64,000 nt of DNA from an uncultured bacterium (lineage in GTDB: Bacteria > Omnitrophota > Omnitrophia > Omnitrophales > Aquincolibacteriaceae): contig CAYZYT010000007.1 in assembly GCA_964482725.1 (NCBI GenBank), positions 19,875 to 83,874 of the forward strand, given 5' to 3'. The position numbers and the translations under genes were made by a program. The notes beneath the pieces are model-generated. The model made no database searches. It was not told the DNA's origin and was given only the letters and a program-made list of their open reading frames with translations. This document shows positions 8,496 through 52,300 of this stretch, piece after piece (within the stretch, counting starts at the first letter, position 1; the number at the start of each line of letters is the position of its first letter).

Positions 8496-8597
8496 CGGTA
8501 TGTCTGATGCAAGGGCGCTATCGTTTTTGTGGGGCGTGGTGTATACTTTCCGTAGTCATTGCTTCTTCCTCGAAGTTTGTCAGCCAGTGGGGTGAAA

Positions 8598-11500
8598 ATG
8601 AAATTGGATGGCGGGAAGCACCTGGTGGATGGGAAATATTCCATCAAAGACTTGGTAGATCTGGAAGAGTTAAGAGCTCTGTTCCAGAGTTTTACCGATG
8701 CCATGGGCTTTACCATCGGCTTTTTGAGCACTCCCGAGCTTGAGATCCTCATTGCCACAGGATGGCGAAAGATCTGCACCCAATATCACCGGAACTGTCC
8801 CCTCGCCGCAGAAAGATGCCGAATCAGTAACGCCAGGCTTGTCCGTCACTGCAAACGCCCCGGCCAGATCATTATTGAAGCTTGCGAGAATGGACTCGTG
8901 GATTGCGCGACTCCGATCATCATCAAAGGTAAAAAGGTCGCCATTCTCGCGACCGGCCAAGTACTTCTCAAGCCCCCCAATATCGAACATTTCAGAAAAC
9001 AGGCGAAACTCTATGGCTGCAACAAGGCCGCCTATCTCAGAGCCCTGAAAGACGTCCCCGTTATTTCCCCCAAAAAACTAAAGCAAGCCACGCGATTTCT
9101 TGGCCAATTGGCGCATACGATCATCCAGATGGGATATGCCAGCCTTGAGGAAAAGGAACGTAGCGAATTGTTGTCGCGCGAGATCCATCAACGCAAAAAT
9201 TTGGAAGAGGCATTACGAGTCAAGAACCGTGCCTTTGACATATCTCTGGCGGCCACGAGTATTGCCGACACGAGGGGCGTTATCACCGAGGCTAACGATG
9301 CGTTCCTTCGGGCTTGGGGCTGCCGGAGCCGTGGGGAGGTCATCGGCAAGCCCCTAGCGCATTTTTTAAATGATCCGAGAGAGGCTACAGCCATTTTCCG
9401 GGCTCTTAACAAACAGGGGCGATGGGAGGGAGACTTTATAGCGAAGAAGAGAGACAGATCAACATTTATTGCGCACACTCAGGCGACGGCCGTATTGAAT
9501 GAGAGCGGTAAATTGATCGGATATCAATCGGCGGTAGCAGACATCACCGAGCGCCAGAGGGCGGAGGAATCCCTTCAGGAAAGCGTTAAGGATTGGAGGG
9601 ACACATTCGATGCGGTCAATGATGCTGTGTGGCTTCTCAGCCTGGATGGAAGGATCCTTCGGGCCAACAAATCAACCCGTTCGGTGCTTGGGAAAAAGCC
9701 GGAAGAGATCCTTGGGCGCCGTTGCTGTGAAGTGGTCCATGGTTCCCGAATACCTCCCATCGAATGCCCCTTGCATCGTATGCGGAAAAGTCGTCAGCGT
9801 GAATCCTGGGAATTTCAGGATTCGAACCGTTGGTTCCGGGTCACAGTCGATCCTATCTGGGATTCTAAAGGAGTCCTGATCGGGGCTGTTCATATCGTTA
9901 GCGATATTACAGCCCGCAAAGAAGCGGGAGAAGCGCTTCTGGCGAGCGAAGATCAATACCGGAATATTTTTGAGAGCTCCCAGGATGCCTTGATGACGCT
10001 GGAGTCTCCTAGCTGGAAGTTTACCTCGGCCAATACGGCCATGCTGCGGATGTTCGGGGCAAAAAATGCCGCGGAGCTTTTTTCTCATGCTCCTTGGGTT
10101 CTTTCTCCCAAGCTGCAGCCGGATGGGCGCTCTTCTGCCAAGAAGGCCAAGAAAATGATCCAAATAGCGATCCGCCAAGGTTCTCACGCCTTCGAGTGGA
10201 CGCACCGACGGATTGATGGAACGGCGTTCCCCGCCGAAGTTCTCTTGACGAGAGTGGTTAAGGACAAGGACAAGGACAAGGACATAGTATCCCTCCAGGC
10301 AACGGTCAGAGATATCACGGCGCGCAAAAAGTCGGAGGAGGCTTTGCGGGAGAGTGAAGAAAAATTTCGTCTTATGTTCAACACATCGGCTGCCGGGATG
10401 GCGATGTGCAACATGGACGGTTCTCTTGTCGAAGTGAACCAGGCTTATTTAGATATTATTGGCTATACGCGCAAAGAAGCCCTGAGACTTAGCTATTGGG
10501 ATCTGACGCCGAAGAAGTATGCCAAGGATGAGGCCCGACAACTTCGCTCCATGGAATTGACTGGAAAATACGGTCCTTATACGAAGGAGTATATTCGAAA
10601 AACAGGCGAGCGGGTTGACGTGATGCTCACCGGGGCCGTTGTGACGGGGGCGGATGGGGTGAAGCGTATCTGGTCGCTTGTGGAGAATATCACCGAGCGC
10701 AAGCGGTCGGAGGAGCTGTTGAAACAGCGTGAGGCCTACTTGACAGCCATTGTGGATAACCAGTCCGGGATGGTCTGGCTGAAGGACAAGGAAAGCCGGT
10801 TTCTGGCCGTGAACCAGGTATTCGCCAAAATGGCCGGCAAGAAAAAGCCCGAGGATGTGGTGGGGAAGACCGATCTTGATTTCTGGCCTCCCGAAATGGC
10901 TAAGGGATATCGGGCCGATGACCGGAAAGTGATGCGAAGCCGAAAATCTGTCTCGGTGGAGGAACTCATCTCCGAGAAAGGCGTCGCTCGGTGGCATGAG
11001 ACTTTCAAGACCCCTGTTTTTGACTCGGACGGAAAAGTGATCGGGACGACCGGCTATGCCCGGGATATCACGGAGCGCAGGCGTGCAGAAGAGGCTCTTC
11101 AGGAGAGCGAAAAACGCTTTCGCGTTGTGGTAAATAATTCGCTCGATCTTGTTTACCGGCGGAACATCCAGACCGGCCGGTATGATTTTTTTAGCCCGGC
11201 GGTCAAGAAGACGCTCGGTTTTTCATCAGAAGAATTGATCGGCAAAAAACTGAGCTTTGCCACAAGTCGGATTCATCCCGAGGATCTCAAGGTGATAATG
11301 CCTGTGCTGAAAAGAGCCCAGGCCGGCCTTCAGAGGAGCGGTATCGTCGATTATCGATGCAGACACAAAGATGGAACTTATCGATGGCTTTCTGATCGTT
11401 TTACGATCGTTGATGACGCGAACGGACGGCCCTTTTATTGGGTAGGGGTTTCTCGAGATGTTACCGCTGCCAAGGTGTCGGCCGAGGCGCTGAGGAAAAG

Positions 11501-13295
11501 TGAAACCGAGAAAAAACTAGTTTTAGACAATATCCCGGACCTGGTTGTTTATCAGGATACAAAAAACAAAATCATCTGGGCGAATTCCTGCACCGCGAAG
11601 GCCTTCGGTAAAACTGTTGGGGAACTGAAGGGAGCCACTTGTTATAAGGCGTTTTATAACCTGGATCGGCCATGCGCCGGATGTCCTGTCAACAAGTGTA
11701 AAAAAACGGGTCTTTTGGAGCAAATGGAAATGGTTTCTTCCGATGGCAGATGTTGGATGATCTCCGGCAGTCCTGTTAAAGATGCGTCCGGTACGGTGGT
11801 CGGTATTGTAGAAGTAGCCGTCAATATTACCGATCGCAAAAAAGCGGAAGAAAGATTGCTCTTCGTAAATAAAGCGATCGAATCTGTCAATGTTGCGATC
11901 GGGATCTCGGACGCTCAGGGGCATCATTTTTATCAAAACAAGGCTCTGTCCGATCTATTCGGATACGCAACAGCCCAAGAACTGGATGCGGCAGGGGGGG
12001 GATCGAAGGTTGTTAAGGATCCCAACGTGGCCAAAGAAATGTTCAGCACTGTTCATAAAGGAAGATCCTGGGCAGGTGAGTTGGAGATGGTAACGAAAAA
12101 TGGGCGTGTATTTCCTGCCTATGAACGTGCGGACGCCGTAAGAGACAGCAAGGGAAATATCATGGGACTCATTGGAGTCATAACCGATATTACCGAGCGA
12201 AAACGGGCTTTGGATTCTCTCCGGGAGCACAGGCACCAATTGCTGCAGGTCATTGATACTGTGCCGCACATGATCTTTGCGAAAGATCAAAAAGGCCGGT
12301 TCCTTCTTGCCAATCGCGCAGTTGCAGAAGCCTATGGAAAGGAACCGAAAGATCTTATCGGTGTTCGGCATCAGGATGTTCACAAAGATCGTCAGGAGAT
12401 GAAGGAATTCTTTAAAGGTGACCGGGAGGTTCTGTCGTCCCTTAAACCCCAACTCGTTGCGAATGAGCCCTTCACGGACAGCCGGGGCAATAGGCATATT
12501 CTTCAGACGATCAAGATCCCTTTTAAAATGATCGGAATCAAAGACCCTTGTATCCTGGGAGTGTCGGTCGATGTGACGGAACAAAAGAAGGTCGAAGAAT
12601 TCCGTAACGATATTGTAAGGACGGTGTCCCATGAGCTTCGCACACCTCTTTCGATCGAGAAGGAAGGGATCAGTCTTCTCGTGGATGAGATGGTGGGCCC
12701 AGTGAATGCGGAGCAAAAGGAGATTCTTGAAACGGTGATGCGGAGTATCGATCGCCTGGCGCGCATGATCACAAGTCTTTTGGATATCTCAAGTATCGAG
12801 ACCCGGAAGATCCATCTTTTGCAAAAGGTGACGAATCTGGTGGATCTCGTGAATGATGTGGCGTTCGAGTTTAAAAAGCGCGCGGAGGACAAAGGCATTG
12901 AACTCGGCGTAAAAGTGCCAAGGCGTTTGGTGCGGGTTTTTGTGGATGGGGACAAGCTCCTGCAGGTTTTGAGCAATTTGGTGGATAATGCCATCAAATT
13001 CACTCCGAAGGGCGGGACGGTGGGGATTGCCCTCAATGTAATGAAGAATTCCGTGGAATGCGAGGTTCGGGATACCGGGATCGGGATTGCTCCCGAGAAT
13101 ATGGGAAAACTGTTTGAAAAATTCCAGCAATTTTCAAGGAAAGCCGGGCCCGGGGAAAAAGGGTTCGGTCTTGGGCTTTCAATCGCCAAGGGGATCATTG
13201 AATTGCACGGAGGCCAGATCTGGATCAAAAGTGAACTCGGCAAGGGAACTCAGGCGACCTTCTCACTGCCGCTCCATCAGACGGAAGGGGATTGA
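8598..13295 (+). CDS. sensor histidine kinase with N-terminal PocR-like sensory domain and ~9 PAS/PAC domains
   Basis: N-terminal PocR-like region; repeated PAS signatures (ITERKRAEE.../DITERKR... boundaries); HisKA H-box VSHELRTPL; HATPase_c G-boxes RDTGIGIAPENMGKLFEKF and GFGLGLSIAKGIIELHGG; ATG 8598 with ggggtga RBS. Confidence 0.85.
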   Translation: MKLDGGKHLVDGKYSIKDLVDLEELRALFQSFTDAMGFTIGFLSTPELEILIATGWRKICTQYHRNCPLAAERCRISNARLVRHCKRPGQIIIEACENGLVDCATPIIIKGKKVAILATGQVLLKPPNIEHFRKQAKLYGCNKAAYLRALKDVPVISPKKLKQATRFLGQLAHTIIQMGYASLEEKERSELLSREIHQRKNLEEALRVKNRAFDISLAATSIADTRGVITEANDAFLRAWGCRSRGEVIGKPLAHFLNDPREATAIFRALNKQGRWEGDFIAKKRDRSTFIAHTQATAVLNESGKLIGYQSAVADITERQRAEESLQESVKDWRDTFDAVNDAVWLLSLDGRILRANKSTRSVLGKKPEEILGRRCCEVVHGSRIPPIECPLHRMRKSRQRESWEFQDSNRWFRVTVDPIWDSKGVLIGAVHIVSDITARKEAGEALLASEDQYRNIFESSQDALMTLESPSWKFTSANTAMLRMFGAKNAAELFSHAPWVLSPKLQPDGRSSAKKAKKMIQIAIRQGSHAFEWTHRRIDGTAFPAEVLLTRVVKDKDKDKDIVSLQATVRDITARKKSEEALRESEEKFRLMFNTSAAGMAMCNMDGSLVEVNQAYLDIIGYTRKEALRLSYWDLTPKKYAKDEARQLRSMELTGKYGPYTKEYIRKTGERVDVMLTGAVVTGADGVKRIWSLVENITERKRSEELLKQREAYLTAIVDNQSGMVWLKDKESRFLAVNQVFAKMAGKKKPEDVVGKTDLDFWPPEMAKGYRADDRKVMRSRKSVSVEELISEKGVARWHETFKTPVFDSDGKVIGTTGYARDITERRRAEEALQESEKRFRVVVNNSLDLVYRRNIQTGRYDFFSPAVKKTLGFSSEELIGKKLSFATSRIHPEDLKVIMPVLKRAQAGLQRSGIVDYRCRHKDGTYRWLSDRFTIVDDANGRPFYWVGVSRDVTAAKVSAEALRKSETEKKLVLDNIPDLVVYQDTKNKIIWANSCTAKAFGKTVGELKGATCYKAFYNLDRPCAGCPVNKCKKTGLLEQMEMVSSDGRCWMISGSPVKDASGTVVGIVEVAVNITDRKKAEERLLFVNKAIESVNVAIGISDAQGHHFYQNKALSDLFGYATAQELDAAGGGSKVVKDPNVAKEMFSTVHKGRSWAGELEMVTKNGRVFPAYERADAVRDSKGNIMGLIGVITDITERKRALDSLREHRHQLLQVIDTVPHMIFAKDQKGRFLLANRAVAEAYGKEPKDLIGVRHQDVHKDRQEMKEFFKGDREVLSSLKPQLVANEPFTDSRGNRHILQTIKIPFKMIGIKDPCILGVSVDVTEQKKVEEFRNDIVRTVSHELRTPLSIEKEGISLLVDEMVGPVNAEQKEILETVMRSIDRLARMITSLLDISSIETRKIHLLQKVTNLVDLVNDVAFEFKKRAEDKGIELGVKVPRRLVRVFVDGDKLLQVLSNLVDNAIKFTPKGGTVGIALNVMKNSVECEVRDTGIGIAPENMGKLFEKFQQFSRKAGPGEKGFGLGLSIAKGIIELHGGQIWIKSELGKGTQATFSLPLHQTEGD

Positions 13296-13299
13296 AATT

Positions 13300-13680
13300 A
13301 TGAGCGAGCCGAAGAAGAAAAAGATCCTTTTCATTGAAGATGAGCCGGATCAGATCGTAATGATCTCTCTCAGGCTTGAAAAGAACGGCTATGAAGTGAT
13401 CTCTTCCCTCGACGGCGAGGAAGGTGTGGAGATGGCCAAAAAGGAAATGCCAGATCTTATCCTGGCGGATGTGATCATGCCCGGGATCGACGGTTTTGAG
13501 GTCTGCCGCCGGCTTCGCAAGGATCCCGCGACAAAACATATTCCCATTATTTCCACGACTGCCGCGGGTGCGGACGATGTGGAGCATCAGTGCCTTACGG
13601 CCGGGGCCAATGACTGTGTTCGTAAGCCTTACGATTCTTCGGATCTTCTTATGAAGATCAAGCGCCTGATCAAAAAATAA
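13300..13680 (+). CDS. single-domain response regulator (CheY-like receiver)
   Basis: KILFIEDEPDQ...LILADVIMPGIDGFEVCRRLRKD...KPYD: receiver-domain Asp pocket, phospho-acceptor Asp and Lys; ATG 5 nt after kinase stop. Confidence 0.85.
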   Translation: MSEPKKKKILFIEDEPDQIVMISLRLEKNGYEVISSLDGEEGVEMAKKEMPDLILADVIMPGIDGFEVCRRLRKDPATKHIPIISTTAAGADDVEHQCLTAGANDCVRKPYDSSDLLMKIKRLIKK

Positions 13681-13838: not shown

Positions 13839-14555
13839 ATGAAGTCCTTGAATAGCAAGCTACTCATTAATGCGCTGGCCAGGATCAGTGACGCCGTCAC
13901 GTCGGACCTTTATGTGGACGAGATCCTGAAGCTGATCGTCACTGTGACCGCGGAGGTCATGAGCTCCAAAATCTGCTCCCTGATGCTTCTGGATAAAAAA
14001 ACTCAGGAGCTTGCGGTCAAGGCCACCCAGTCTGTCAGTGAGTTCTACAACACCAAGCCCAATGCCAGGATCGGGGAGGGCATCGCCGGCCGGGTGGCTC
14101 AATCCGGAAAATCCATCACCGTGTTGGATGTGAGAAAAGATGCGCGCTATCTGAATCAGGCGATCGCGAAAAAAGAGCACCTTTGTTCGCTTCTGAGCGT
14201 GCCGCTTATTTTTAAAGGGAATGTGATCGGGGTTCTGAATTGCTACACCGTGAAGCCGCACCGGTTTGGCCAGGGGGAAATACGCATTATCCGGTCGATC
14301 GCGAGCCTGGCTGCGATCGTCATCGAAAATTTCCGGCTGGTGGTCGAGTCTCAGGCGATCCAGGAAGAACTGGAATCCCGAAAGGCGATCGAGCGCGCCA
14401 AGGGCATTCTGATGAAGCGGGAGGGCTTGAGCGAGCAGGGGGCTTACAAGCTCATCCGGAAGTACAGCATGGATAAGCGCAAGAGCATGAAGGAAGTGGC
14501 GGAGGCGATCCTCTTAAGCGAGGAAATGCAAAAGATCGCGTCCAGCAAGGAATAA
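13839..14555 (+). CDS. GAF domain + ANTAR domain RNA-binding antitermination regulator
   Basis: GAF-like N-terminus; C-terminal ANTAR signature ELESRKAIERAKGILMKREGLSEQGAYKLIRKYSMDKRKSMKEVAEAIL; ATG 13839 after ggaggaag RBS. Confidence 0.8.
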   Translation: MKSLNSKLLINALARISDAVTSDLYVDEILKLIVTVTAEVMSSKICSLMLLDKKTQELAVKATQSVSEFYNTKPNARIGEGIAGRVAQSGKSITVLDVRKDARYLNQAIAKKEHLCSLLSVPLIFKGNVIGVLNCYTVKPHRFGQGEIRIIRSIASLAAIVIENFRLVVESQAIQEELESRKAIERAKGILMKREGLSEQGAYKLIRKYSMDKRKSMKEVAEAILLSEEMQKIASSKE

Positions 14556-14683
14556 GAGCCTCAAAGAAGCTGGCCTTCTGATCCCGCCGAGGCGGGAGAA
14601 GAATCTAAAGTAAGATCCTTCCCCCGCCCTTTAAAGCAGGGCGTGCTCAGGATGACGGGGCTTTTAGGTTTCTAAGATCGGGA

Positions 14684-14711
14684 TTGGCAATCAGAGCTTC
14701 TGTGCTATAAT
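14684..14711 (+). promoter_or_regulatory. candidate sigma70-type promoter of the gdhA leader
   Basis: TTGGCA (14684-14689) - 16 nt - TATAAT (14706-14711). Confidence 0.4.
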
Positions 14712-14812
14712 TCCGTCGCCGAGTACCGAGTGCGTGCGCGGCGGAAAGAAAGAAAGCCGGCGTTCGAAGAAGAATCCGGTTTCCTTTTGATCCGGCAGTC
14801 CGGGATAATGAC

Positions 14813-14854
14813 GTCCTTTTTGGCAGGTGTTTCTGCTGAAAAGGACTTTTTTTT
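14813..14854 (+). terminator. intrinsic terminator inside gdhA 5' leader (candidate attenuator)
   Basis: gtccttttggcagg-tgtttc-tgctgaaaaggac followed by T8; 75 nt upstream of gdhA ATG and ~100 nt downstream of the candidate promoter. Confidence 0.55.
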
Positions 14855-14928
14855 GTCACAAGCGTTCTGTTGTCGCGCACGGGGCGGCGGCATCTTGATC
14901 GTTCAAACGTCAAAAAAGGGGTAAACCA

Positions 14929-16293
14929 ATGGCGAAAAAAGTTGAAAATCTGGCAGAGAAAGAGATCAACGCGTTCATGAAAAAAGTGAGTGCGAGAAAT
15001 TCCGGCGAGAAGGAATTCCTTCAAGCGGTCCGGGAAGTGGTGGAGTCCGTAACGCCTTTTATCGAAAAGAATCCCAAGTATAAGAACGCGAAGATCCTGG
15101 ACAGAATGGTCGAGCCGGAGCGTGTGATCATGTTCCGCGTTCCCTGGATCGATGACAAGGGAGAAGTCCAGGTCAATCGCGGGTTCCGTATCGAGATGAA
15201 TAGCGCCATTGGTCCTTATAAGGGCGGTCTTCGTCTTCACCCGAGCGTGAACCTCGGTATTTTGAAGTTCCTCGCATTCGAGCAAGTGTTCAAGAACAGC
15301 CTCACGACGCTTCCCATGGGCGGCGGCAAGGGCGGTTCGGATTTTGACCCCAAAGGGAAATCCGATAACGAAGTCATGAAGTTCTGTCAGAGTTTCATGC
15401 TGGAGCTTTCCCGTCATATCGGACCGGATACGGACGTTCCGGCCGGCGATATCGGCGTGGGCGGCCGCGAGATCGGTTTTATGTTCGGCCAGTACAAAAG
15501 GATCCGCAATGAGTTTACCGGTGTGCTGACGGGCAAGGCCCTGAACTGGGGCGGCAGTTTGATCCGTCCCGAAGCCACGGGGTATGGCTGCGTGTATTTC
15601 GTCCAGGAGATGCTGAAGACCCGGAAGATGACGTTTGCCGGGAAAGTCTGTACGGTGTCCGGTTCTGGGAACGTTGCACAATATACCGTCGAGAAGCTCA
15701 ATGAGCTCGGCGCGAAAGTCGTGACCCTCTCGGATTCCGAAGGGACCATCCACGATCCGAAGGGGATCGATGCGAAGAAATTGAAGTTCGTGATGGAGCT
15801 TAAGAACGTGAGACGCGGACGCATCAAGGAATACGCTGAGGAATTTGGCTGCGAATATCTCCCGGGCCAAAAACCCTGGAAGGTGAAATGTGACGCCGCG
15901 TTCCCGAGCGCCACGCAAAACGAGATCAACGAAGCGGACGCGAAGGCTCTTGTGAAGGGCGGTTGTATCGCGATCGGGGAAGGCGCGAACATGCCGAGCA
16001 CGCCGGAAGCCATCGCGGTGTTCCAGAAAGCCAAGATTCTCTACGCCCCCGGAAAAGCGGCGAATGCCGGCGGGGTGGCGACATCGGGCCTTGAAATGAG
16101 CCAGAACAGCATGCGGTTGCGCTGGTCCCGTAAAGAGGTCGATGAGAAACTTCACAACATCATGATCTCGATCCACGAGAGCTGCGTGAAATACGGCCAG
16201 GAAGACGGAGGGTATATCAACTACGTCAACGGCGCCAACATCGCAGGGTTCGTGAAGGTCGCCGATGCGATGATCGATCAGGGGGTTGTCTAG
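14929..16293 (+). CDS. gdhA: NADP-specific glutamate dehydrogenase
   Basis: GDH signatures KGGLRLHP, LPMGGGKGGSDFDPKGKS, full-length 454 aa. Confidence 0.9.
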   Translation: MAKKVENLAEKEINAFMKKVSARNSGEKEFLQAVREVVESVTPFIEKNPKYKNAKILDRMVEPERVIMFRVPWIDDKGEVQVNRGFRIEMNSAIGPYKGGLRLHPSVNLGILKFLAFEQVFKNSLTTLPMGGGKGGSDFDPKGKSDNEVMKFCQSFMLELSRHIGPDTDVPAGDIGVGGREIGFMFGQYKRIRNEFTGVLTGKALNWGGSLIRPEATGYGCVYFVQEMLKTRKMTFAGKVCTVSGSGNVAQYTVEKLNELGAKVVTLSDSEGTIHDPKGIDAKKLKFVMELKNVRRGRIKEYAEEFGCEYLPGQKPWKVKCDAAFPSATQNEINEADAKALVKGGCIAIGEGANMPSTPEAIAVFQKAKILYAPGKAANAGGVATSGLEMSQNSMRLRWSRKEVDEKLHNIMISIHESCVKYGQEDGGYINYVNGANIAGFVKVADAMIDQGVV

Positions 16294-16316: not shown

Positions 16317-16348
16317 CGGGGCCCCTTCCGGGGGCCCTGTTTTTTTTG
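16317..16348 (+). terminator. rho-independent terminator after gdhA (A-run/T-run, possibly bidirectional)
   Basis: aaaaaaa-cggggcccc-ttcc-gggggccctg-tttttttt. Confidence 0.7.
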
Positions 16349-16487
16349 TTGGACAAATGATACGACAATGGTATCATTAAGGCATGAACCCCGTTAGATC
16401 TCTGAATCAAGCGGTAGGAGAGATCTTCCGGGAGAAGGTGGCCAGCGATGTTGTTTTGCTTTTTGAATCCATAGGAGATCTAACGGG

Positions 16488-16946
16488 GTGAAGCTCATCA
16501 CGCGAAACACAGATTATGGGATGCGGGCCCTTTGCTATATTGCGAAGCAGGGTCGTGAATCCGTCTCGGCCACTGAAATGGTGGCGGTGCTTAAGATCCC
16601 GAGGCCATTTTTGAGGAAGATCCTCCAGACCTTGAGCTCTGAAGGCCTGCTGCGGTCCGTCAAAGGGCAGGGGGGCGGTTTTTCCCTGGCTCTCCCCGCG
16701 GAAAAGGTCCTGCTTACGGACCTGATCAAAATCTTTCAGAATACGATCCAGCTGAACGAGTGCGTGTTCAAGAAAAAATTATGTCCGAACCGGAGCACGT
16801 GCGTGCTGAAAAAAGAGATCGACTCGATCGAGCAGGATGTGCTTAAACGTCTGCACGGGATCTCGATCGCTTCATTAATTGCCAGGAATACGGAACGTCC
16901 GGAGAAGAAAGGGGGATCTTATGGCCATGGTTCATCCGGCCGCTGA
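16488..16946 (+). CDS. Rrf2 family transcriptional regulator (3-Cys, Fe-S type; NsrR/IscR-like)
   Basis: N-terminal wHTH typical of Rrf2 (MKLITRNTDYGMRALCYIA); C-x5-C-x5-C cluster ECVFKKKLCPNRSTC; GTG start after aacgggg; 3' end overlaps next gene by 26 nt. Confidence 0.75.
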   Translation: MKLITRNTDYGMRALCYIAKQGRESVSATEMVAVLKIPRPFLRKILQTLSSEGLLRSVKGQGGGFSLALPAEKVLLTDLIKIFQNTIQLNECVFKKKLCPNRSTCVLKKEIDSIEQDVLKRLHGISIASLIARNTERPEKKGGSYGHGSSGR

Positions 16947-18621
16947 AACGCGGTTTAAGGGACTTCCGATCAGCCCGGGGGTCGCAGTAGCTCGCGTGTG
17001 TCTTTTTAATGAAAGCCGCCATGTAAGTCTTCCGGTCGCGGATGTGACGGACAAAGAGGTCCGGAGCGAGGGAGACCGGTTTCGGAAGGCGATCACAGTG
17101 GTGCGGGAAAAACTGTCGATCCTCATCAAAGAAGTGGATGCACGCGTCGGGAAGGCTGAAGCGGGGATCTTTACGGCCCAAAAAATGCTTCTCGAGGACC
17201 CGACCTTGATCGAAAGGATCACCGATCACATCCGGAGCAAAAATTTTAATGCCGAAAAAGCCGTGATCAGTTCGCTGGACTATTTCGAGGAACAGCTTGC
17301 GAAGGTGGACAACGAATATCTCAAGGAGCGCGCCTCGGACGTCGGAGAGGTCAAACGGCGGCTCCTGGATGCTTTGGCGAATCTGAACCCGTCTTTCCAG
17401 TGTCAAAATGATGCGTTCTGCGTCAGGGGAAAGAACCGGATCGTGATCGCCCAGGAGTTGACGCCCAGCCTTACGATGGAGCTCAACACGGACTCCATCC
17501 GGGGATTCGTGACCGACCGGGGAGGCGTGGCGTCGCACGCCGCTATTTTGGCCCGTTCGCTCAGGATCCCGGCCGTGAGCGGTATTCCGGGGATTCACGA
17601 CATGATCTTTTGCGGGACCGAAGTGCTTGTGAACGGGGACACCGGAGAGGTTGTGATCTGGCCGAGCAAGAAAACGCTTTCGCAGTATCCGGATCTTCGG
17701 CTAGCGGCGGCCGAAGAGATCCCGGCGGTTGCGCCTGTGGCGGGGCTCAAAGTGTTCGCCAATCTGAGCCTTGCCAAAGATGTGAAGGAGGCTGTGGTGC
17801 ATGAGGCGGAAGGGATCGGGCTTTACCGCACCGAGTTCGAATTCTTTTCGGCGGGGAAGATCCTCAGTGAAATGGAACAATACAGTCTTTATCTAGAAGT
17901 TCTGAAGGCTATGAAAGAAAAATCGGTCTATTTCAGGATGCTGGATTTGGGAGGCGACAAGACCGCTGATTTTCTCAAACTTGAAAAGGAGCAAAATCCC
18001 GCGCTGGGTTTGCGCGGGAGTCGCCTCCTTCTGGGGCACCCGGAGCTTTTTAGAAGCCAGGCCAGGGCGTTGGCCCGGGCTTCAGTGCACGATCGCGTTT
18101 ATGTGATGTATCCCATGGTGATCGATATTGTGCAATTTCGGAAACTGAAAAAAGCCTTCGAGGAAGCGACCGAGGATGTCCCGCAGGGCGAGATCAAACA
18201 TGGATTGATGTTTGAAGTTCCTTCGGCCTGCCTGGATGCGGAGGAGATCCTTCGGGAGGCGGATTTCGGGAGCATCGGGACGAACGATCTGATCCAGTAT
18301 CTTTTTGCCGTGGACCGGGACAACGAATTTGTCGCGTATGACCACCATCCGGACCGGAAGGCGTTTTGGCATCTGATCCATCACGTCGCGGCCGCGGCGA
18401 AGAAGCACCGGAAGCCCTTGTCGGTGTGCGGGGATCTGGCCAGCCACCCGGAATATGCCCGTCATCTGATGAAAGAGGGGATCCGCGCCGTGAGCGTGGC
18501 CCCGCGGGCCATCACGGGTCTCAGGATCGCGATCAAGAATAAACCAAAACTTTCAAAGAAAAATCAACGGGGAAGTCTTCTTAAAAATACTTTCCCGATT
18601 ACAAAAAAAACGAGGAGATGA
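16921..18621 (+). CDS. ptsI: phosphoenolpyruvate-protein phosphotransferase (PTS Enzyme I-like, PEP-utilising enzyme)
   Basis: Phospho-His region GGVASHAAILARSLRIPAVSG, PEP-binding motif FGSIGTNDLIQYLFAVDRDN; no HPr/EII genes nearby. Confidence 0.8.
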   Translation: MAMVHPAAETRFKGLPISPGVAVARVCLFNESRHVSLPVADVTDKEVRSEGDRFRKAITVVREKLSILIKEVDARVGKAEAGIFTAQKMLLEDPTLIERITDHIRSKNFNAEKAVISSLDYFEEQLAKVDNEYLKERASDVGEVKRRLLDALANLNPSFQCQNDAFCVRGKNRIVIAQELTPSLTMELNTDSIRGFVTDRGGVASHAAILARSLRIPAVSGIPGIHDMIFCGTEVLVNGDTGEVVIWPSKKTLSQYPDLRLAAAEEIPAVAPVAGLKVFANLSLAKDVKEAVVHEAEGIGLYRTEFEFFSAGKILSEMEQYSLYLEVLKAMKEKSVYFRMLDLGGDKTADFLKLEKEQNPALGLRGSRLLLGHPELFRSQARALARASVHDRVYVMYPMVIDIVQFRKLKKAFEEATEDVPQGEIKHGLMFEVPSACLDAEEILREADFGSIGTNDLIQYLFAVDRDNEFVAYDHHPDRKAFWHLIHHVAAAAKKHRKPLSVCGDLASHPEYARHLMKEGIRAVSVAPRAITGLRIAIKNKPKLSKKNQRGSLLKNTFPITKKTRR

Positions 18622-18624
18622 TCT

Positions 18625-20301
18625 ATGGGAATGTTCTGCTTTCAGTGCGAACAAACATCTAAAGGAAAAGGCTGCGACGTGAAGGGAGTTTGCGGGAAAA
18701 CGCCCGAGGTTGCGACGCTTCAGGATCTTTTGGTCCACGCGACAAAAGGGATCGCTATTTATGCGCATTTGGCTCGCGAGATCGGTGTGAAGGATTCGGC
18801 GGCGGATCATTTTGTGATCGAGGGTCTTTTTGCGACTGTGACGAATGTGGATTTTGATCCTAAAAGGCTTCAGGAGACGCTCCTGCGCGCTTATGCGATC
18901 AAGGAAAACATCAAAAAGCTTTTCCTGGACGCCTATAAAAAGAAGGTCGGGCATGATTTTGACGGGGAGCTTTCGGCCACGGCGTATTGGAAACCTGCAG
19001 ACAGTCTGGCGGGACTTGAAGAACAGGGAAGCAAGGTCGGCGTTCTCTCCGACAAAACATTGAATGAGGATATCCGGAGCCTTCGCGAGCTTCTTCTTTA
19101 CGGGCTCAAGGGGATGGCGGCCTATGCGGACCACGCGTATGTGCTGGGTCGGGAGGATGATGAGGTCACGGCGTTCTTCCATAAAGGGTTGCGCGCACTT
19201 ACCGACAACAGTTTGACCGTTGATGATCTTGTGGGGCTGAACATGCAGTTCGGGATGGTGAATCTCAAATGTCTCGAGCTTCTGGACAAGGCGCACACCG
19301 ATCATTTCGGGCATCCGGTGCCGACGGGCGTATCACTGGGTGTGAAAAAAGGGCCTGCGATCCTGGTGTCGGGGCATGATCTGCTCGATCTGGAACAGCT
19401 TCTTCAGCAGACGGAAGGCAAGGGTGTGAACATTTATACGCACGGCGAGATGCTGCCGGCGCACGGGTACCCGGGCCTTAAAAAATACAAGCATCTTGTC
19501 GCCAATTACGGCGGCGCGTGGCAGGACCAGGCCCAGGAATTCGACGCGTTTCCGGGTGCGATCCTCATGACCACGAATTGCATCCAGCAGCCGCGCGAAA
19601 GTTACAAGGGCCGGATCTTTACGACGGGTCTTGTGGCGTGGCCGGGGGTCGAGCACATCAATCCCGTGAACGGGAAAAAAGATTTTTCGGCGGTGATCAA
19701 GAAAGCGATCGCGGCCGGCGGTTTTTCTCAGGACATTCCCGCGAAGAACATCGTGGTCGGGTTTGGCCACAACGCGGTGCTGGGGGTTGCGGACAAGGTC
19801 ATTGGCGCAGTGAAAGCGGGACAGATCAAACATTTTTTCCTGGTGGGCGGATGCGACGGCGCGAAGCCCGGAAGAAATTACTACACGGAATTTGCTGAAC
19901 AGGCGCCTAAGGATACGGTGATCCTGACGCTTGCGTGTGGCAAATATCGTTTTAACAAGCTTGAGTTCGGGGATATCGGCGGCATCCCGAGACTTCTCGA
20001 TATGGGGCAGTGCAATGACGCTTATTCTGCGATCCAGGTAGCGGTCGCGTTGGCGAAAGCTTTCGGTTGCGGCGTGAACGATCTGCCGCTTTCGATGATC
20101 CTTTCCTGGTACGAGCAAAAGGCGGTCTGCATTCTGCTGACGCTTTTGGCGCTTGGGATCCAGAATATCCGGATCGGGCCTTCGCTTCCGGCGTTCGTCA
20201 GTGCGAACGTGCTCAGCGTGCTTGTCGAGAAGTTCAACATCAAGCCCGTGACCACGGCCAAAGAAGACCTCGCCGCGATCCTTGGGACTGTAAAAGCCTG
20301 A
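18625..20301 (+). CDS. hcp: hydroxylamine reductase / hybrid-cluster protein
   Basis: N-terminal Cys cluster MFCFQCEQTSKGKGCDVKGVCGKT, full-length 558 aa HCP architecture. Confidence 0.9.
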   Translation: MGMFCFQCEQTSKGKGCDVKGVCGKTPEVATLQDLLVHATKGIAIYAHLAREIGVKDSAADHFVIEGLFATVTNVDFDPKRLQETLLRAYAIKENIKKLFLDAYKKKVGHDFDGELSATAYWKPADSLAGLEEQGSKVGVLSDKTLNEDIRSLRELLLYGLKGMAAYADHAYVLGREDDEVTAFFHKGLRALTDNSLTVDDLVGLNMQFGMVNLKCLELLDKAHTDHFGHPVPTGVSLGVKKGPAILVSGHDLLDLEQLLQQTEGKGVNIYTHGEMLPAHGYPGLKKYKHLVANYGGAWQDQAQEFDAFPGAILMTTNCIQQPRESYKGRIFTTGLVAWPGVEHINPVNGKKDFSAVIKKAIAAGGFSQDIPAKNIVVGFGHNAVLGVADKVIGAVKAGQIKHFFLVGGCDGAKPGRNYYTEFAEQAPKDTVILTLACGKYRFNKLEFGDIGGIPRLLDMGQCNDAYSAIQVAVALAKAFGCGVNDLPLSMILSWYEQKAVCILLTLLALGIQNIRIGPSLPAFVSANVLSVLVEKFNIKPVTTAKEDLAAILGTVKA

Positions 20302-49300: not shown

Positions 49301-52300
49301 GACCCAGCTTGGAGCAGAAATGCTTGCTTCCGAACTCAATGACGCGGTGTTGTTCGAGAACCTGGACACCGCTATTCAGCGCGCGATCGAACAAGTGCTC
49401 GGCGAAATGGATCAGAGCCCGGATCATGCCGCGGATTTTTACATAAGAGATCGCGATAATATTATTTCCAATCTCGAATCCCGCTCCGAGAATCGTCTGA
49501 TCGCAGGAGTGGCCGAGAAGGGAATGTCCTTTGAAGAGGTTCGCGAGGTTTCGCGCGCCCGCCGGAAAAAAGCGGCGTGGCAAGGAGGCATCCAATGGTG
49601 GCCGAAGGTCAGTGCCTTTCTGGGAGGCAATATTGCTTCCGCAGGGAATCTCGTTGCGCCATTGGCTGAAGAATCCGTCTATCAAGGTTCTTTGGACGTA
49701 CGTTCCGAGGCCCGTCTGTACAAAAAAGCCTGGGCCCATGTGACCGCGGTGACGTCTTCGGCCAAAGGGTTGAATCCGCTCTATGCGGTGATGACGGCGG
49801 CGGTGATCGGGGTTTCCGGATGTGCCAATTATCAAGGGGGGCTGTTGCACTCACTCCGGCATAATCCGCCGGCCAATATTCCCGATTATCGTAACCACTA
49901 TAGTCCTCCTCCCTATTATCGCGCTCCCTATGTTCCTAAGTCTCATTTTAAGCCGCCCGTTATTCCCATAAGACCGGTGCCCTCCGGGCCGAACCGTTCA
50001 GAGGTTCGAAAGTCTGTTGTTGGGAATAGCTCCAATCCGGTGGTTTCTCTCTGGGGCCTTGACACTTTTGACAGCCAACAGGGGTCGGTTCTGACCGCCA
50101 TTAATTCTGAATTTGTATTCCCGGGAGATTTCCAATTGCAAGCATCTCTTTTGGCGGATTATTCGGTGATTGAGGAGCTTCACCAGGGTTCCTTCAAGGC
50201 AGGGGATAAACAATATCATTTGGTGGTCGATGTCGGAGAGTCGATCGCAACTTTAAGACTTTCATTGGATGGAGAAATGAGGCTGACCGGCTGGAAATGG
50301 CTCAAAGATATCAGGTCCGAAGTTCAGGATTTGGCGCGTCACCCTTATGGGCTTTTAGCGGAAGTCAATGAAAGTCTGAGACGGCAGAATATCCCGGAGG
50401 TCAAACAGGAAACGACGCAAATTTACGGGCAGCAGCTCATCCATGGCGTCGAAAGCATCTTGGAAAAATTCCGTGGAAAACCCTTTACCGGCATTACCTA
50501 TCAACAAGTCGCCGGACGGTCGGAAGTGCGAACCGTAGGCTCCTCCGCGGAGGAATTGGACCGGGCGATCGATGCGGCCTACGTGAAAAAAAGACAGCTT
50601 GAATCGAAAGTCGGGGAAGCCAGGAGAAACTATGAGTCCTCGTACTGGCGGGAAACGGATGCCCGGCGCAGGGAAAATCTTCGCGATGGGGATCGGGATC
50701 TCGAGCAATTGAAAGATGAAACGGACAGCCTCCGTGTGACCCGCGACTCTCTGCAAAAAGAGCTGGAAACCGTCACGATCCAGATCCGGCGGTTGCTGGA
50801 CGAGAAGCATCCCGTGAAACGCTCGGAAGTGCGGGAAACGACGAAGCAGGCGCTGATCAGGGTCAATGCTGAAATGGAAGGGCTCGATCGATTGATCTCG
50901 GAGCTCACAAGAGCCCCGGAGTCGGCGGACAAGGACGAAAGGCTTGAAGCGCTGAACGCAAGTTATGACGAGCTTGAAGAAAAACGGCAGCACCTCGCGC
51001 GGCTAGGAGTGATCAAAAAAGCCTGGGCCCATGTGTCAGCCGTGACTTCTGCAGCCAAGGGACTCAATCCTCTCTACACGGTCGGGCTGGCAATTTTTGA
51101 ACAATGGTTATGGCATCCCCGAAGCCTCACGCTCGCTCAGGCAGCTCATGTCGAGCAAGCCGCATCGATGGAAGCGCGTTTGGATACCCTCCGGGCATTG
51201 GGCGCGAACCCGGGCCTGGGCTATCAGCGATTTGTTTATCATTTGATGCGCGCCGAGTTATCGCCTTCCGAGTGGCGCCGTTTTGACCGCGCTTTGATGT
51301 GGGAAGTTGATGCTGAGAAAAAGGTAGCGTCTGTACGTTCGGAACTGAGGGGTGGGAAAAACATTGCGGGAATGTTGAAACAAAAAGGCCTGGATGACAA
51401 CGAGATCCGTCTTTTGGCGGCGGCCGTTCTAGTCAGTGGGGGGAGAGGGAACCTCAGTCAGGCTGGGGTCATATTAAAGAATACGAATACTCTTCCGGAG
51501 GTGACTCCGGAGATGCTGGTGGCTTTCCAGACGCTCATGTCCCGTCCGGAAGATATGCGGGCGGTATGGCTGAAGCTTGATGACCAGCTCCGATTTTCAC
51601 ATGACATCGAGGCTCTTTATTTTCAAGACGAAAATCTCGGCGCTGCACACCGTTTAATGCATAAGGCACAGGTTCTTATCGATGTTTTTCGGGCCCTCCG
51701 CGGAGAGATTTCGTCCATGGGCAATCGTTCTGAAATCAGAGCCGAAGTTGATCCCGAGACGGCGGCGAAGATCGCGGATCGCTGGAAAAAGATCCGCTAC
51801 ATGGAAACGGACCCCGAGGGCGTGAAGCTCAAGGCCGAAGCCGAAGAAAAGGGCGAAGGTTTCCTGAATAACGCCCAGGCGACGATCCGTAAAGTGGCGG
51901 CTCAGATCAAGCTCGATCCGAAGATCCTTGAAAAGCTTTTGCAGTTCACCAAAGTCATTCGTGTCAAGATCCCGCTCACCCTCGATGAGGGCGGGGAGAC
52001 GCAATATATTGACGGATTTCGGATCGGCCACGCGCCCTATCGCGGGCCCTACAAAGGCGGCATCCGTTTTGCGATCGGCGTTGTGGAAAATATGATCAAG
52101 GCCCTCGCGACAGAAATGAGCGTCAAGAACGCTATTGCCGGGCTTCCTTACGGTGGCGGCAAAGGCGGCGTTGCGATCGATCCGAAGTATTTGTCGATCA
52201 AAGAACTTGCGCGTCTGACCCGCGGCTATGTGGAGCAATGCCTGAAGCAGGATCCGAACGCGTTCGGGGCGCTCCTGGATGTTCCGGCCGGAGATATCGG

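Follow-up and report, generated by a model that had tools for sequence, protein, structure and literature searches.

The gdhA gene of an uncultured Omnitrophota bacterium is preceded by a leader containing a hairpin and a T-tract, and the gene directly upstream encodes a protein with GAF and ANTAR domains, raising the question of whether this leader terminator is overridden by the adjacent protein and, if so, which signal it obeys. The original prediction for the window (the whole 64-kb stretch of DNA that was analysed) answered the former positively and linked the signal to a kinase and a receiver-only protein encoded further upstream. Our analyses indicate that the gdhA leader likely attenuates transcription under the control of the GAF-ANTAR protein encoded next to it, which most likely turns on gdhA by preventing termination, and that the kinase and the receiver are probably not part of the core system. 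The mechanism is a known one; new here are the host, the uncharacterised type of sensor and the target gene, gdhA. The features discussed are listed in Table 1.

Table 1. Position of the genes and leader elements at the gdhA locus, numbered from the first nucleotide of the window
Feature	Position	Strand	Details
Kinase with PocR, multi-PAS, HisKA and HATPase domains	8559-13295	+	Domain matches; membership in the system doubtful
Receiver-only protein, 126 aa	13300-13680	+	Domain matches; membership in the system doubtful
GAF-ANTAR regulator gene, 238 aa, predicted antiterminator protein	13839-14555	+	Pfam GAF_2 and ANTAR
Sigma-70-type promoter of the gdhA leader	14684-14711	+	TTGGCA 14684-14689, 16-nt spacer, TATAAT 14706-14711
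Hairpin H1	14718-14742	+	9-pair stem with one mismatch; 7-nt loop CGAGUGC 14727-14733, G4 at 14730
Hairpin H2	14743-14793	+	Long stem GGAAAGAAAG/CUUUUGAUCC, cap GUUC-GAAGAA-GAAU, -20.6 kcal/mol
P2, ANTAR-type hexaloop hairpin, predicted antiterminator	14803-14816	+	GGAU-AAUGAC-GUCC; loop 14807-14812, A1 14807, G4 14810
Intrinsic terminator	14813-14854	+	15-bp stem GUCCUUUUUGGCAGG-UGUU-UCUGCUGAAAAGGAC 14813-14846, then T8 14847-14854
gdhA with ribosome-binding site	14916-16293	+	RBS AAGGGG 14916-14921; CDS 14929-16293, ATG 14929

The gdhA product matched the profile of NADP-specific glutamate dehydrogenase (NF006929) over positions 4-445 of 445 with 778.2 bits against a cut-off of 536, and ELFV_dehydrog and its N-terminal domain were matched as well. 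In the upstream protein, GAF_2 (PF13185) was found at 2.7e-22 and ANTAR (PF03861) at 3.1e-22, the latter scoring 78.5 bits (gathering score 27.3) over profile positions 2-54 of 54, in agreement with the predicted gene content; domain matches likewise bore out that kinase and receiver-only genes precede the GAF-ANTAR gene. No match to Response_reg was found in the 238-aa protein, its N-terminus being the GAF domain, and the label 'PdtaR' used in some source annotations is not supported by this domain content. The ANTAR segment aligned to EutV, Rv1626 and NasR (E = 6.5e-9 for NasR), with the EutV residues R142, K143, K147, K149, E160, Y164 and M172, whose RNA-contact roles have been described (PMC8934654), corresponding to R181, K182, R186, K188, E199, Y203 and M211 of the window protein, a single K-to-R substitution. 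These seven positions were invariant in 23 homologues except for R186, which was K in three of the 23 rows. An AF2 monomer model (pLDDT 87.6) showed the GAF domain, a long continuous helix (residues 145-195, pLDDT 86-95) and then a helical bundle. The top Foldseek matches of the GAF domain were 3trc, the GAF domain of PtsP/EI-Ntr, and 3ci6 (target TM 0.83-0.85), which by sequence ranked second and fourth, after 3e0y (E = 1.2e-12 for 3trc). The N-terminal region of NF008283 matched residues 12-194 at 9.2e-16; identification of the protein as PtsP was rejected, the whole-protein score of 57 being far under the cut-off of 583.

One promoter-like or terminator-like site alone carries no significance here, as scans of 4 kb yielded two promoters where 1.7 were expected and 10 terminators where 5.1 were expected. 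We take the promoter and terminator of the gdhA leader as real because both are conserved in orthologues while the flanks diverge: across 14 orthologous intergenic regions the -35 TTG, the TG, TAnAnT, the terminator and the T-tract were invariant or nearly so, with no exception in the TTG, TG and TAnAnT columns. The promoter, which had been predicted as near-consensus and lies where it was placed, agrees with the consensus at 11 of 12 positions, with a TG extending the -10 element (TGcTATAAT), giving a predicted transcription start at about 14718 and a predicted leader of about 211 nt. In 12 of the 14 aligned regions it starts about 10 nt past the stop codon of the ANTAR gene and precedes the terminator. 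An additional insert of about 125 nt lies between stop codon and promoter in the window (14556-14683) and in one other locus, L002, and is common to these two only; it was not repeated in the window, had an unremarkable structure (z = -0.46) and gave no plasmid match, and we treated it as an insertion without evident function.

The strong hairpin and T8 tract proposed within the leader are supported by a fold energy of -20.3 kcal/mol; the hairpin begins 95 nt past the predicted start, 74 nt separate the end of the T-tract from the gdhA ATG, and the terminator is conserved in the 14 orthologues, with covariation in helices 6 and 7. The leader also contains a 14-nt hairpin, P2, that overlaps the 5' arm of the terminator. 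The terminator stem starts with the same 4 nt that make up the 3' arm of P2, GUCC (14813-14816), and the two structures are thus mutually exclusive. On its own P2 is weak (-2.0 to -3.6 kcal/mol), yet the minimum-free-energy structure predicted for nascent RNA that ends at 14830 contains it, before the 3' arm of the terminator is made. When P2 was forced, an 11-pair remnant of the terminator still folded (leader energy -53.1 vs -56.2 kcal/mol), so that two features, the 4-nt spacer and the weakness of the A-U foot, would have to account for any loss of termination. Across the 14 orthologues P2 was invariant or nearly so.

Canonical dual hexaloops had been looked for by eye, without confident identification, in making the original prediction; our search recovered one A1/G4 hexaloop, that of P2, but a second one upstream with a 5-12 nt linker (P1) was absent from the window, as was any conserved hairpin within 20 nt upstream of P2. 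The nearest upstream partner is H1, which has a 7-nt loop (G4, C1) and ends 60 nt before P2. CCG-GCAGUC-CGG (14793-14803), considered as a nearer P1, is present in the window but not conserved in orthologues and was rejected, as was pairing of the purine-rich stretch 14743-14756 with the terminator 5' arm, for which the strand polarity is wrong by inspection. Two extra matches to a relaxed pattern, at 17049 and 19155, were attributed to chance, both being coding, with one mismatch each and no terminator context. In the 64-kb window, the structural scan and a covariance model each found the gdhA leader only. Of the parts by which Ramesh et al. 2012 define an ANTAR-target leader, this one has a terminator between promoter and ORF, a P2 hexaloop with A1/G4 whose stem reaches the required 3 bp, and an overlap between the two, but lacks the closely spaced P1; under the revised single-hexaloop minimal motif (PMC8934654) it qualifies. 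A search of Rfam 15 gave no match to the leader at E up to 10, and only sub-threshold terminator-like matches in six related loci.

The fold of the entire leader (14718-14860) has an energy of -58.2 kcal/mol, with z = -4.0 relative to shuffles, and two further hairpins lie upstream of P2. H1 is homologous to RGCAC-AARGUNN-GUGCY hairpins located directly 3' of the -10 box in about 70 leaders, and eight of its nine pairs covary over 44 leaders, the window copy having C, not A, at loop position 1; it is a candidate for the first ANTAR contact, or loading hairpin. H2 has an apical GAAGAA hexaloop (14766-14771) with G1 and G4 (14769), followed by the U-rich UUUCCUUUU, and corresponds, through homology to three-module leaders, to 'module 1', which in distant leaders is a full hexaloop-type hairpin with a terminator. 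Covariation was seen in helices 2-5 of the H2 region. H2 is missing from L012 and reduced in L004, both of which retain P2 and the terminator, so that H2 is dispensable.

Among the comparison loci, all of which were gathered through the ANTAR protein, the order GAF-ANTAR, leader, gdhA was found in all 15 loci that were informative at an identity of at least 80%, and at 58-72% identity gdhA lies downstream of, divergent from or upstream of the ANTAR gene. All seven readable gdhA upstream regions at 58-72% carry an A1/G4 hexaloop overlapping a terminator, and in four of them a second hexaloop of canonical type (GCAC-AAYGGC-GUGC) precedes it by 6-13 nt, the P1 feature being present in the distant gdhA leaders L062, L063, L065 and L068. 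Modules of hexaloop plus terminator numbered 96 in 101 GAF-ANTAR loci (543 kb) compared with 1-11 (mean 5.6) in dinucleotide shuffles; 86 of the 96 were on the ANTAR strand, and when the stem requirement was dropped, 87 of 256 sites had at least three pairs against about 13 expected. Genes preceded by modules were gdhA (in three gene arrangements), GAF-ANTAR genes themselves, and those for Gln-synt_N (GlnA-like), P-II, an ammonium transporter and a PyrK-like oxidoreductase, and two or three such modules may follow one another as tandem terminators in related loci. In two Geobacteraceae loci (L021 and L023), the scan picked up GGC-AAAGGC-GCC modules before nifH and glnB.

A covariance model built solely from the close leaders of the window clade found full-length homologues in 44 loci (E = 1e-36 to 1e-5). 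Of the cells in the resulting alignment, 91.9% were paired, a proportion that fell to 82% in shuffles and to 37-58% in slid alignments, and both sides changed in 32 of the 41 stem pairs, although these pairing counts are somewhat inflated because the alignment is fitted to the model. The sequence GGAU-[A/G]A-N-G-[A/G]-N-GUCCU was almost invariant, with GGA, loop A2, G4 and UCCU in 44 of 44 leaders, two flanking stem columns in 43 and loop position 1 of P2 being A in 40 and G in four. The P2 stem is invariant in the window clade, and its covariation derives only from distant modules chosen for at least three pairs: over 71 distinct sites, pair 3 was GC in 33, AU in 18, GU in 17 and CG in three, and pair 4 was GC in 44, AU in nine and GU in five.

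Hexaloop overlap, synteny, recurrence of the modules, covariation and the RNA-contact residues support the idea that the terminator is overridden by the adjacent GAF-ANTAR protein, and from them we infer binding of the protein to the RNA and antitermination as follows. Transcription would start at about 14718 from the conserved sigma-70 promoter and, by default, the nascent leader would fold the 15-bp terminator, halting polymerase at the T8 tract near 14854. An active GAF-ANTAR dimer would bind P2 as it emerges, via the flipped-out loop G4 as in EutV, and bound P2 would keep GUCC, so that the foot of the terminator would lose four base pairs beside the U-tract and polymerase would read through into gdhA. 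H1 would probably be the first contact site, with self-closed H2 bringing it to about 9 nt from P2. The activity of the protein may be set by the GAF domain, which resembles the glutamine-sensing GAF of EI-Ntr and the GAF of NifA. That the signal is a metabolite reporting nitrogen status, glutamine or 2-oxoglutarate, with read-through at low glutamine, is a conjecture of which we are doubtful.

The leader might instead be a riboswitch or another protein-independent attenuator, with H1 and H2 forming a metabolite aptamer that chooses between P2 and the terminator and the ANTAR gene a mere neighbour. Both hairpins are conserved and covary over the 44 leaders, the leader folds far better than its shuffles, and the lack of an Rfam match would leave room for an undescribed class. 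However, the most conserved element is the 14-nt hairpin that fits the ANTAR rule (hexaloop, A1, G4); the P2 module is reused alone, lacking H1 and H2, in the gdhA leaders of L072 and L110 and is also reused in tandem; P2 and the terminator outlast the loss or reduction of H2; and each module found adjoins a GAF-ANTAR gene with intact contact residues, in loci that were gathered via the ANTAR protein. We consider a riboswitch very unlikely. A free-standing small RNA of about 137 nt (14718-14854), perhaps an ANTAR decoy like EutX/Rli55 with gdhA transcribed apart, seems highly improbable. A strong conserved promoter and a strong terminator do bracket a structured RNA, and hexaloop decoys of the EutX type are known (PMC8934654), but gdhA would then need a promoter of its own, and the promoter scan found no promoter-like site between the terminator and the gdhA ATG in the window. 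This stretch is poorly conserved except for the ribosome-binding site, and the distance from T-tract to ATG, about 40 nt in L004, 14 nt in L046 and 14-30 nt in many ANTAR-gene leaders, is so short in these that no room is left for a second promoter. The roles of leader and decoy are not exclusive, and the terminated product of an attenuated gdhA leader could serve as a decoy as well.

It is scarcely credible that the hairpin and T8 are simply the terminator of a kinase-receiver-ANTAR operon, or a constitutive partial terminator, with GGAUAAUGAC conserved for a CsrA-like GGA binder. Lying downstream of the ANTAR gene, the terminator would also halt read-through from that gene, and AGGAU presumably resembles GGA motifs of the CsrA type. 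A conserved promoter nevertheless stands between the ANTAR gene and the terminator in the 12 orthologous regions noted above, and the module also precedes opposite-strand genes (divergent gdhA in L062, L063, L065 and L068), in which the GGA sits in the stem and not in the loop; in other modules GGA becomes GAC or GAAC while loop A1 and G4 are constant. A three-component cascade, in which the PocR/PAS kinase and the receiver deliver the signal, for example if the receiver bound the GAF-ANTAR protein in a phosphorylation-dependent manner, is unlikely. Control of ANTAR proteins by a partner is known from AmiC-AmiR, and NasS controls NasT as a partner protein; nasT and nasS are reported to be co-transcribed. 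The adjacency of the original prediction held in the clade at 80% identity or more, where the order kinase, receiver, ANTAR is kept and the gaps are mostly about 40-60 nt, although L004, L006 and L012 have a further 1.6 kb between receiver and ANTAR gene. As a signal link it did not hold, since loci at 56-75% identity with the same protein family and RNA modules have no kinase or receiver within 3 kb of the ANTAR gene, except for a weak receiver match in L062. The ANTAR protein itself has no receiver domain, which together with the absence of the pair from distant loci leaves kinase input unproven, and its GAF domain is already a sensor.

The window may represent one copy of an undescribed family of leader RNAs in Omnitrophota and neighbouring candidate phyla, running a kinase-free, metabolite-responsive nitrogen regulon through GAF-ANTAR proteins, a reading that we put forward tentatively and somewhat short of even chances. 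In such a family, the layout would be a 5' heptaloop hairpin (RGCAC-AARGUNN-GUGCY), a long closing hairpin and one to three tandem modules of a single hexaloop plus terminator, and the regulon would comprise gdhA, glnA-like, P-II, amt and GAF-ANTAR genes responding directly to, for example, glutamine or 2-oxoglutarate. If so, this would be the first GAF-ANTAR protein with an assignable function and a natural case in which ANTAR acts on single hexaloops while the loading hairpin lies far away, which the EutV structure paper only proposed (PMC8934654). The related tandem single-hexaloop terminators with their distant heptaloop are natural test cases for the model of successive binding or single hexaloops. 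The locus offers a concrete pairing of a protein, a 14-nt RNA site and an output gene in a phylum that has no cultured representatives. It also suggests that gdhA, which is central to ammonium assimilation and is controlled at the promoter in enterobacteria and Geobacter, may be controlled after initiation, and if the GAF ligand were glutamine or 2-oxoglutarate, a single protein would both sense nitrogen and act directly on RNA.

A 2025 review lists GAF-ANTAR as one of the most abundant ANTAR architectures. Searches of the literature on GAF-ANTAR, on ANTAR control of gdhA and on ANTAR proteins in Omnitrophota, in which 'Antarctic' matches added noise, returned no relevant paper and no characterised GAF-ANTAR protein. 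At the time of Ramesh et al. 2012 (PMC3369931), likewise, no GAF-ANTAR had been characterised, and Omnitrophota were not covered; in the supplementary files of that study, glutamate dehydrogenase and GAF are absent. ANTAR leaders predominantly control nitrogen genes, and, in a parallel to the present loci, the predicted regulons in Desulfotomaculum, Pelobacter and others have several leaders per genome, preceding genes for P-II, ammonium transporters, glutamine synthetase and glutamate synthase (PMC3369931).

Several characterised systems resemble the predicted one in part. The EutV/EutW eut leaders of Enterococcus faecalis (PMC3369931, PMC8934654) share the ANTAR RNA-contact residues and a short A1/G4 hexaloop hairpin that has its 3' side within an intrinsic terminator, and antitermination there proceeds by hairpin stabilisation, the mode that we propose for the window. 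Unlike EutV, the window protein has a GAF sensor rather than a phosphorylated receiver, and its target would be gdhA instead of ethanolamine genes. The leaders differ too, the window having no second hexaloop 5-12 nt upstream but a 7-nt-loop hairpin 60 nt upstream with a long hairpin between. This absence of a canonical P1 is a counterpoint to the antitermination reading, given that lengthening of the linker abolished antitermination by EutV (PMC3369931, PMC8934654). In Klebsiella oxytoca, NasR relieves the terminator of the nasF leader as a one-protein sensor-ANTAR regulator of a nitrogen operon, as predicted for the window; NasR binds its small ligand directly, and A1 and G4 of the nasF hexaloop are required (PMC3369931). 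The NasR sensor, however, is NIT (nitrate/nitrite), not GAF, and the nasF promoter is sigma-54/NtrC-dependent whereas that of the window is sigma-70-like. GnfK/GnfR of Geobacter sulfurreducens (PMC2995071) brings about ANTAR antitermination of nitrogen genes with leader terminators, as we propose here, but GnfR is a phosphorylated response regulator whereas the window protein has no receiver, and Geobacter gdhA is controlled by GnfM at a sigma-54 promoter and not by antitermination. For the sensor, the best fold match is the GAF of EI-Ntr (PtsP; 3trc, TM 0.85), which binds glutamine (PMC4848567) and shares only 21-24% identity with that of the window; there the output is a PEP-phosphotransferase, whereas in the window protein it is ANTAR.

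The leader between the GAF-ANTAR gene and gdhA carries both a near-consensus promoter and a hairpin followed by T8, as had been predicted. Since lone consensus matches are not significant, we took conservation as the deciding test. The loci compared encode relatives of the ANTAR protein and come from metagenomes and from a set with one genome per species, some being present in both. At protein identities of at least 80%, the ANTAR gene was followed by gdhA in 15 of 15 informative loci (duplicates removed), with 210-400 nt between the genes. Across 14 aligned intergenic regions, the TTG of the -35 box, the TG and TAnAnT of the -10 region, a GGAU-A-G-GUCCUU block and the T-tract were invariant or nearly so; the segment from the terminator to the ribosome-binding site was weakly conserved and variable in length, with just ~40 nt from T-tract to ATG in L004. 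The 143-nt leader (14718-14860) folds at -58.2 kcal/mol (z = -4.0), a value matched by none of 200 shuffles, and the window contains no promoter-like site from the terminator up to the gdhA start.

Features of the gdhA locus and its surroundings, with positions in the window
Feature	Position	Strand	Remark
Kinase, PocR + multi-PAS + HisKA/HATPase	8559-13295	+	
Receiver-only protein	13300-13680	+	126 aa
GAF + ANTAR protein	13839-14555	+	238 aa
Intergenic region with leader	14556-14928	+	373 nt
Insert before the gdhA promoter	14556-14683		~125 nt
gdhA leader promoter	14684-14711		TTGGCA-16-TATAAT; TG one base 5' of -10 box
H1, leader hairpin	14718-14742		seven-base loop
H2, long leader hairpin	14743-14793		apical hexaloop GAAGAA, G4
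P2, ANTAR-type hairpin	14803-14816		GGAU-AAUGAC-GUCC
Leader terminator	14813-14846		15-pair hairpin, then T8; -20.3 kcal/mol
gdhA, NADP-type	14929-16293	+	NF006929, 778 bits vs cut-off 536
GC-rich bidirectional terminator at gdhA end	16319-16337		
Second promoter-like site	16350-16377		TGGACA-16-TATCAT, 5' of Rrf2-family regulator
Rrf2-family regulator, PtsI-type enzyme I without GAF domain, hydroxylamine reductase/hybrid-cluster protein	16488-20301	+	
Single ORF, 7591 aa	40398-63173	+	complete phosphoglucose isomerase domain (758 bits), HEAT repeats, phosphoglucomutase domains I-III
Glu/Leu/Phe/Val dehydrogenase domain pair in the same ORF	~51950-53310		

The insert separating the promoter from the ANTAR stop codon is common to the window and L002 only, the promoter beginning ~10 nt past the stop codon in the other orthologues; it showed no repeat in the window, no unusual structure and no plasmid match. 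Further downstream, the Rrf2, PtsI and hydroxylamine reductase genes may form a nitrosative-stress cluster, and the 7591-aa ORF is an unusual giant fusion of central-metabolism enzymes.

An ANTAR hexaloop hairpin, which the original prediction had missed by eye, was located directly 5' of the terminator. This hairpin, P2, consists of four stem pairs and a loop of six bases with A1 and G4, the recognition rule set for NasR and EutV (PMC3369931); in the EutV-RNA crystal structure, the flipped-out G4 base stacks on Tyr164 (PMC8934654). GUCC serves both as the 3' arm of P2 and as the opening four bases of the terminator stem, and the two folds are therefore mutually exclusive. P2 by itself is weak (-2.0 to -3.6 kcal/mol), yet nascent RNA reaching to 14830 already contains it in its minimum-free-energy fold, ahead of synthesis of the terminator 3' arm, a modelled behavior that would be expected of a protein-dependent structure.

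The canonical dual hexaloop was not found in the window leader, neither H1 nor H2 fitting as the upstream hexaloop P1. These two hairpins were defined from the consensus fold of ten orthologous leaders, in which the fourth base of the H1 loop is an invariant G; in the window, the loop begins with C. H2 is absent in L012 and shortened in L004. The 3' end of H1 lies 60 nt 5' of P2, compared with a linker of 5-12 nt in eut leaders, where a longer one abolishes function (PMC3369931, PMC8934654). With H2 closed, however, the modelled ends of H1 and P2 are just ~9 nt apart, and proximity might thus be restored. Homologues of H1 (RGCAC-AARGUNN-GUGCY) occur directly 3' of the -10 box in ~70 leaders, and the counterpart of H2 in distant leaders is a full first module that includes a terminator, a module being an A1/G4 hexaloop hairpin whose 3' arm sits inside an intrinsic terminator.

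No Rfam 15 family matched the leader in the window or in six related loci. A covariance model, built from ten window-clade leaders only and giving rough E-values, had a single match in the window (14712-14860) and full-length matches in 44 loci (E = 1e-36 to 1e-5), followed by weaker ones. In the 44-locus alignment, whose fitting to the model favours pairing, 91.9% of cells pair, compared with 82% in column shuffles and 37-58% with partners slid, and both sides change in 32 of 41 pairs. Near-invariant in the 44 sequences is GGAU-[A 40/G 4]-A-[A/U/C]-G-[A 38/G 6]-[C 37]-GUCCU; judged from the alignment, such a P2 inside freely covarying helices is the pattern that a protein-binding site would leave.

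Modules were also sought in distant relatives, as a loop A[AG][ACU]G[AG][CU] on a stem of at least 3 bp with its 3' arm lying within a hairpin that runs into five or more T. In 101 loci (543 kb), all collected via the ANTAR protein, 96 modules were found, whereas ten dinucleotide shuffles yielded 1-11 each (mean 5.6). With the stem condition removed, stem lengths were bimodal, at least three pairs forming at 87 of 256 sites (~13 expected). Among 71 distinct modules, preselected for at least three pairs, pair 3 was GC in 33, AU in 18, GU in 17 and CG in 3, and pair 4, on which there was no selection, was GC in 44, AU in 9 and GU in 5. The position of gdhA varies among loci with 58-72% identity in the ANTAR protein: downstream (L052), divergent (L062, L063, L065/66, L068) or, on the same strand, upstream (L064, L067, L072, L110, L090, L101). 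All seven readable gdhA upstream regions have a promoter and, 3' of it, a hairpin (GAC-AAAGGC-GUC or GAAC-AAAGAC-GUUC) that overlaps a terminator; four of them (L062, L063, L065 and L068) have a canonical dual hexaloop, completed by another hairpin, GCAC-AAYGGC-GUGC, 6-13 nt 5' of the first.

Genes behind modules include gdhA, GAF-ANTAR genes (often with 2-3 tandem modules), and genes for a Gln-synt_N protein, P-II, an ammonium transporter, a PyrK-like oxidoreductase and small LuxR/sigma-like proteins. Going by these annotations, the apparent targets share a nitrogen-assimilation theme, which is reported for ANTAR leaders in general (PMC3369931). Many related loci have tandem GAF-ANTAR paralogues, or an ANTAR gene behind its own promoter and 2-3 successive modules (L046-L049, L051, L055, e.g. 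L046:3001-4655; L095:2700-3005; L110:2712-3005), an arrangement whose sequence implies probable autoregulation and multi-step attenuation. The ~180-aa LuxR/GerE-like or sigma-70 region-4-like proteins recur as leader targets (L074:1127-1663, L092:802-1356, L057:4064-4627), suggesting that a regulatory cascade runs downstream of the ANTAR protein. In addition, an ORF behind two modules (L045:1345-2265) joins glutamine synthetase N-terminal and diphthamide-synthase-like (PF01902) domains, and is either a true fusion or the product of a chimeric or frameshifted contig.

Homologues of the regulator are labelled Candidatus Omnitrophota, which assigns the window to a genome of that phylum. The ANTAR domain (78.5 bits) aligns to Rv1626, EutV, NasR and AmiR. 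The EutV RNA contacts R142, K143, K147, K149, E160, Y164 and M172 correspond to R181, K182, R186, K188, E199, Y203 and M211, all invariant in 23 homologues except R186 (K in 3 of 23 rows). Three parts can be made out in the AF2 model (pLDDT 87.6): a GAF domain, a helix of 50 residues and a helical bundle. 'PdtaR' labels from some sources are unsupported, the protein having no receiver domain. Structurally, the GAF domain best matches those of PtsP/EI-Ntr (target TM 0.83-0.85); sequence searches placed the same PtsP matches in the top four, with Aquifex Nlh GAFs, and NifA was much weaker. The EI-Ntr GAF binds glutamine (PMC4848567), which by analogy may serve as a lead for the signal.

Taken with the P2/terminator overlap, the module enrichment and the conserved contact residues, antitermination by the adjacent ANTAR protein, as originally predicted, is the best explanation for control of gdhA and a probable one; the GAF domain would be the sensor input of the switch. 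A riboswitch acting independently of protein fails on the reuse of the 14-nt module without H1 or H2, and a free-standing small RNA on L004 and L046, where the space ahead of the regulated gene is too short for a second promoter. Nor does a plain operon terminator fit: 86 of the 96 modules are on the ANTAR strand, but 8 of the other 10 are leaders of divergent gdhA genes.

Input from the kinase and receiver is possible for the window clade only. Their adjacency holds in the window and in the clade of at least 80% identity, the only one in which they accompany the ANTAR gene (with a further 1.6 kb in between in L004, L006 and L012). At 56-75% identity, where protein family and RNA modules are the same, the loci have neither within 3 kb, barring a weak receiver match in L062, and we therefore do not count the pair in the core mechanism.

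The mechanism proposed is the same as for EutV, NasR, AmiR and GnfR. For GnfR, GGC-AAAGGC-GCC modules 5' of nifH and a P-II gene in Geobacteraceae-type loci (L021:3814-3849, L023:7521-7559) agree with published antitermination targets (PMC2995071). The gdhA gene of Geobacter is controlled at its promoter and not by ANTAR, whereas here it is the proposed ANTAR target; gdh is absent from the accessible part of the Ramesh supplementary files. We found no characterised GAF-sensor ANTAR protein in the literature searched. The window thus differs from known ANTAR systems in its GAF sensor, gdhA target, phylum and non-canonical upstream hairpin arrangement, and the wider leader family that we infer, marked by a heptaloop hairpin and by single-hexaloop terminators in tandem, might merit being called a variant.
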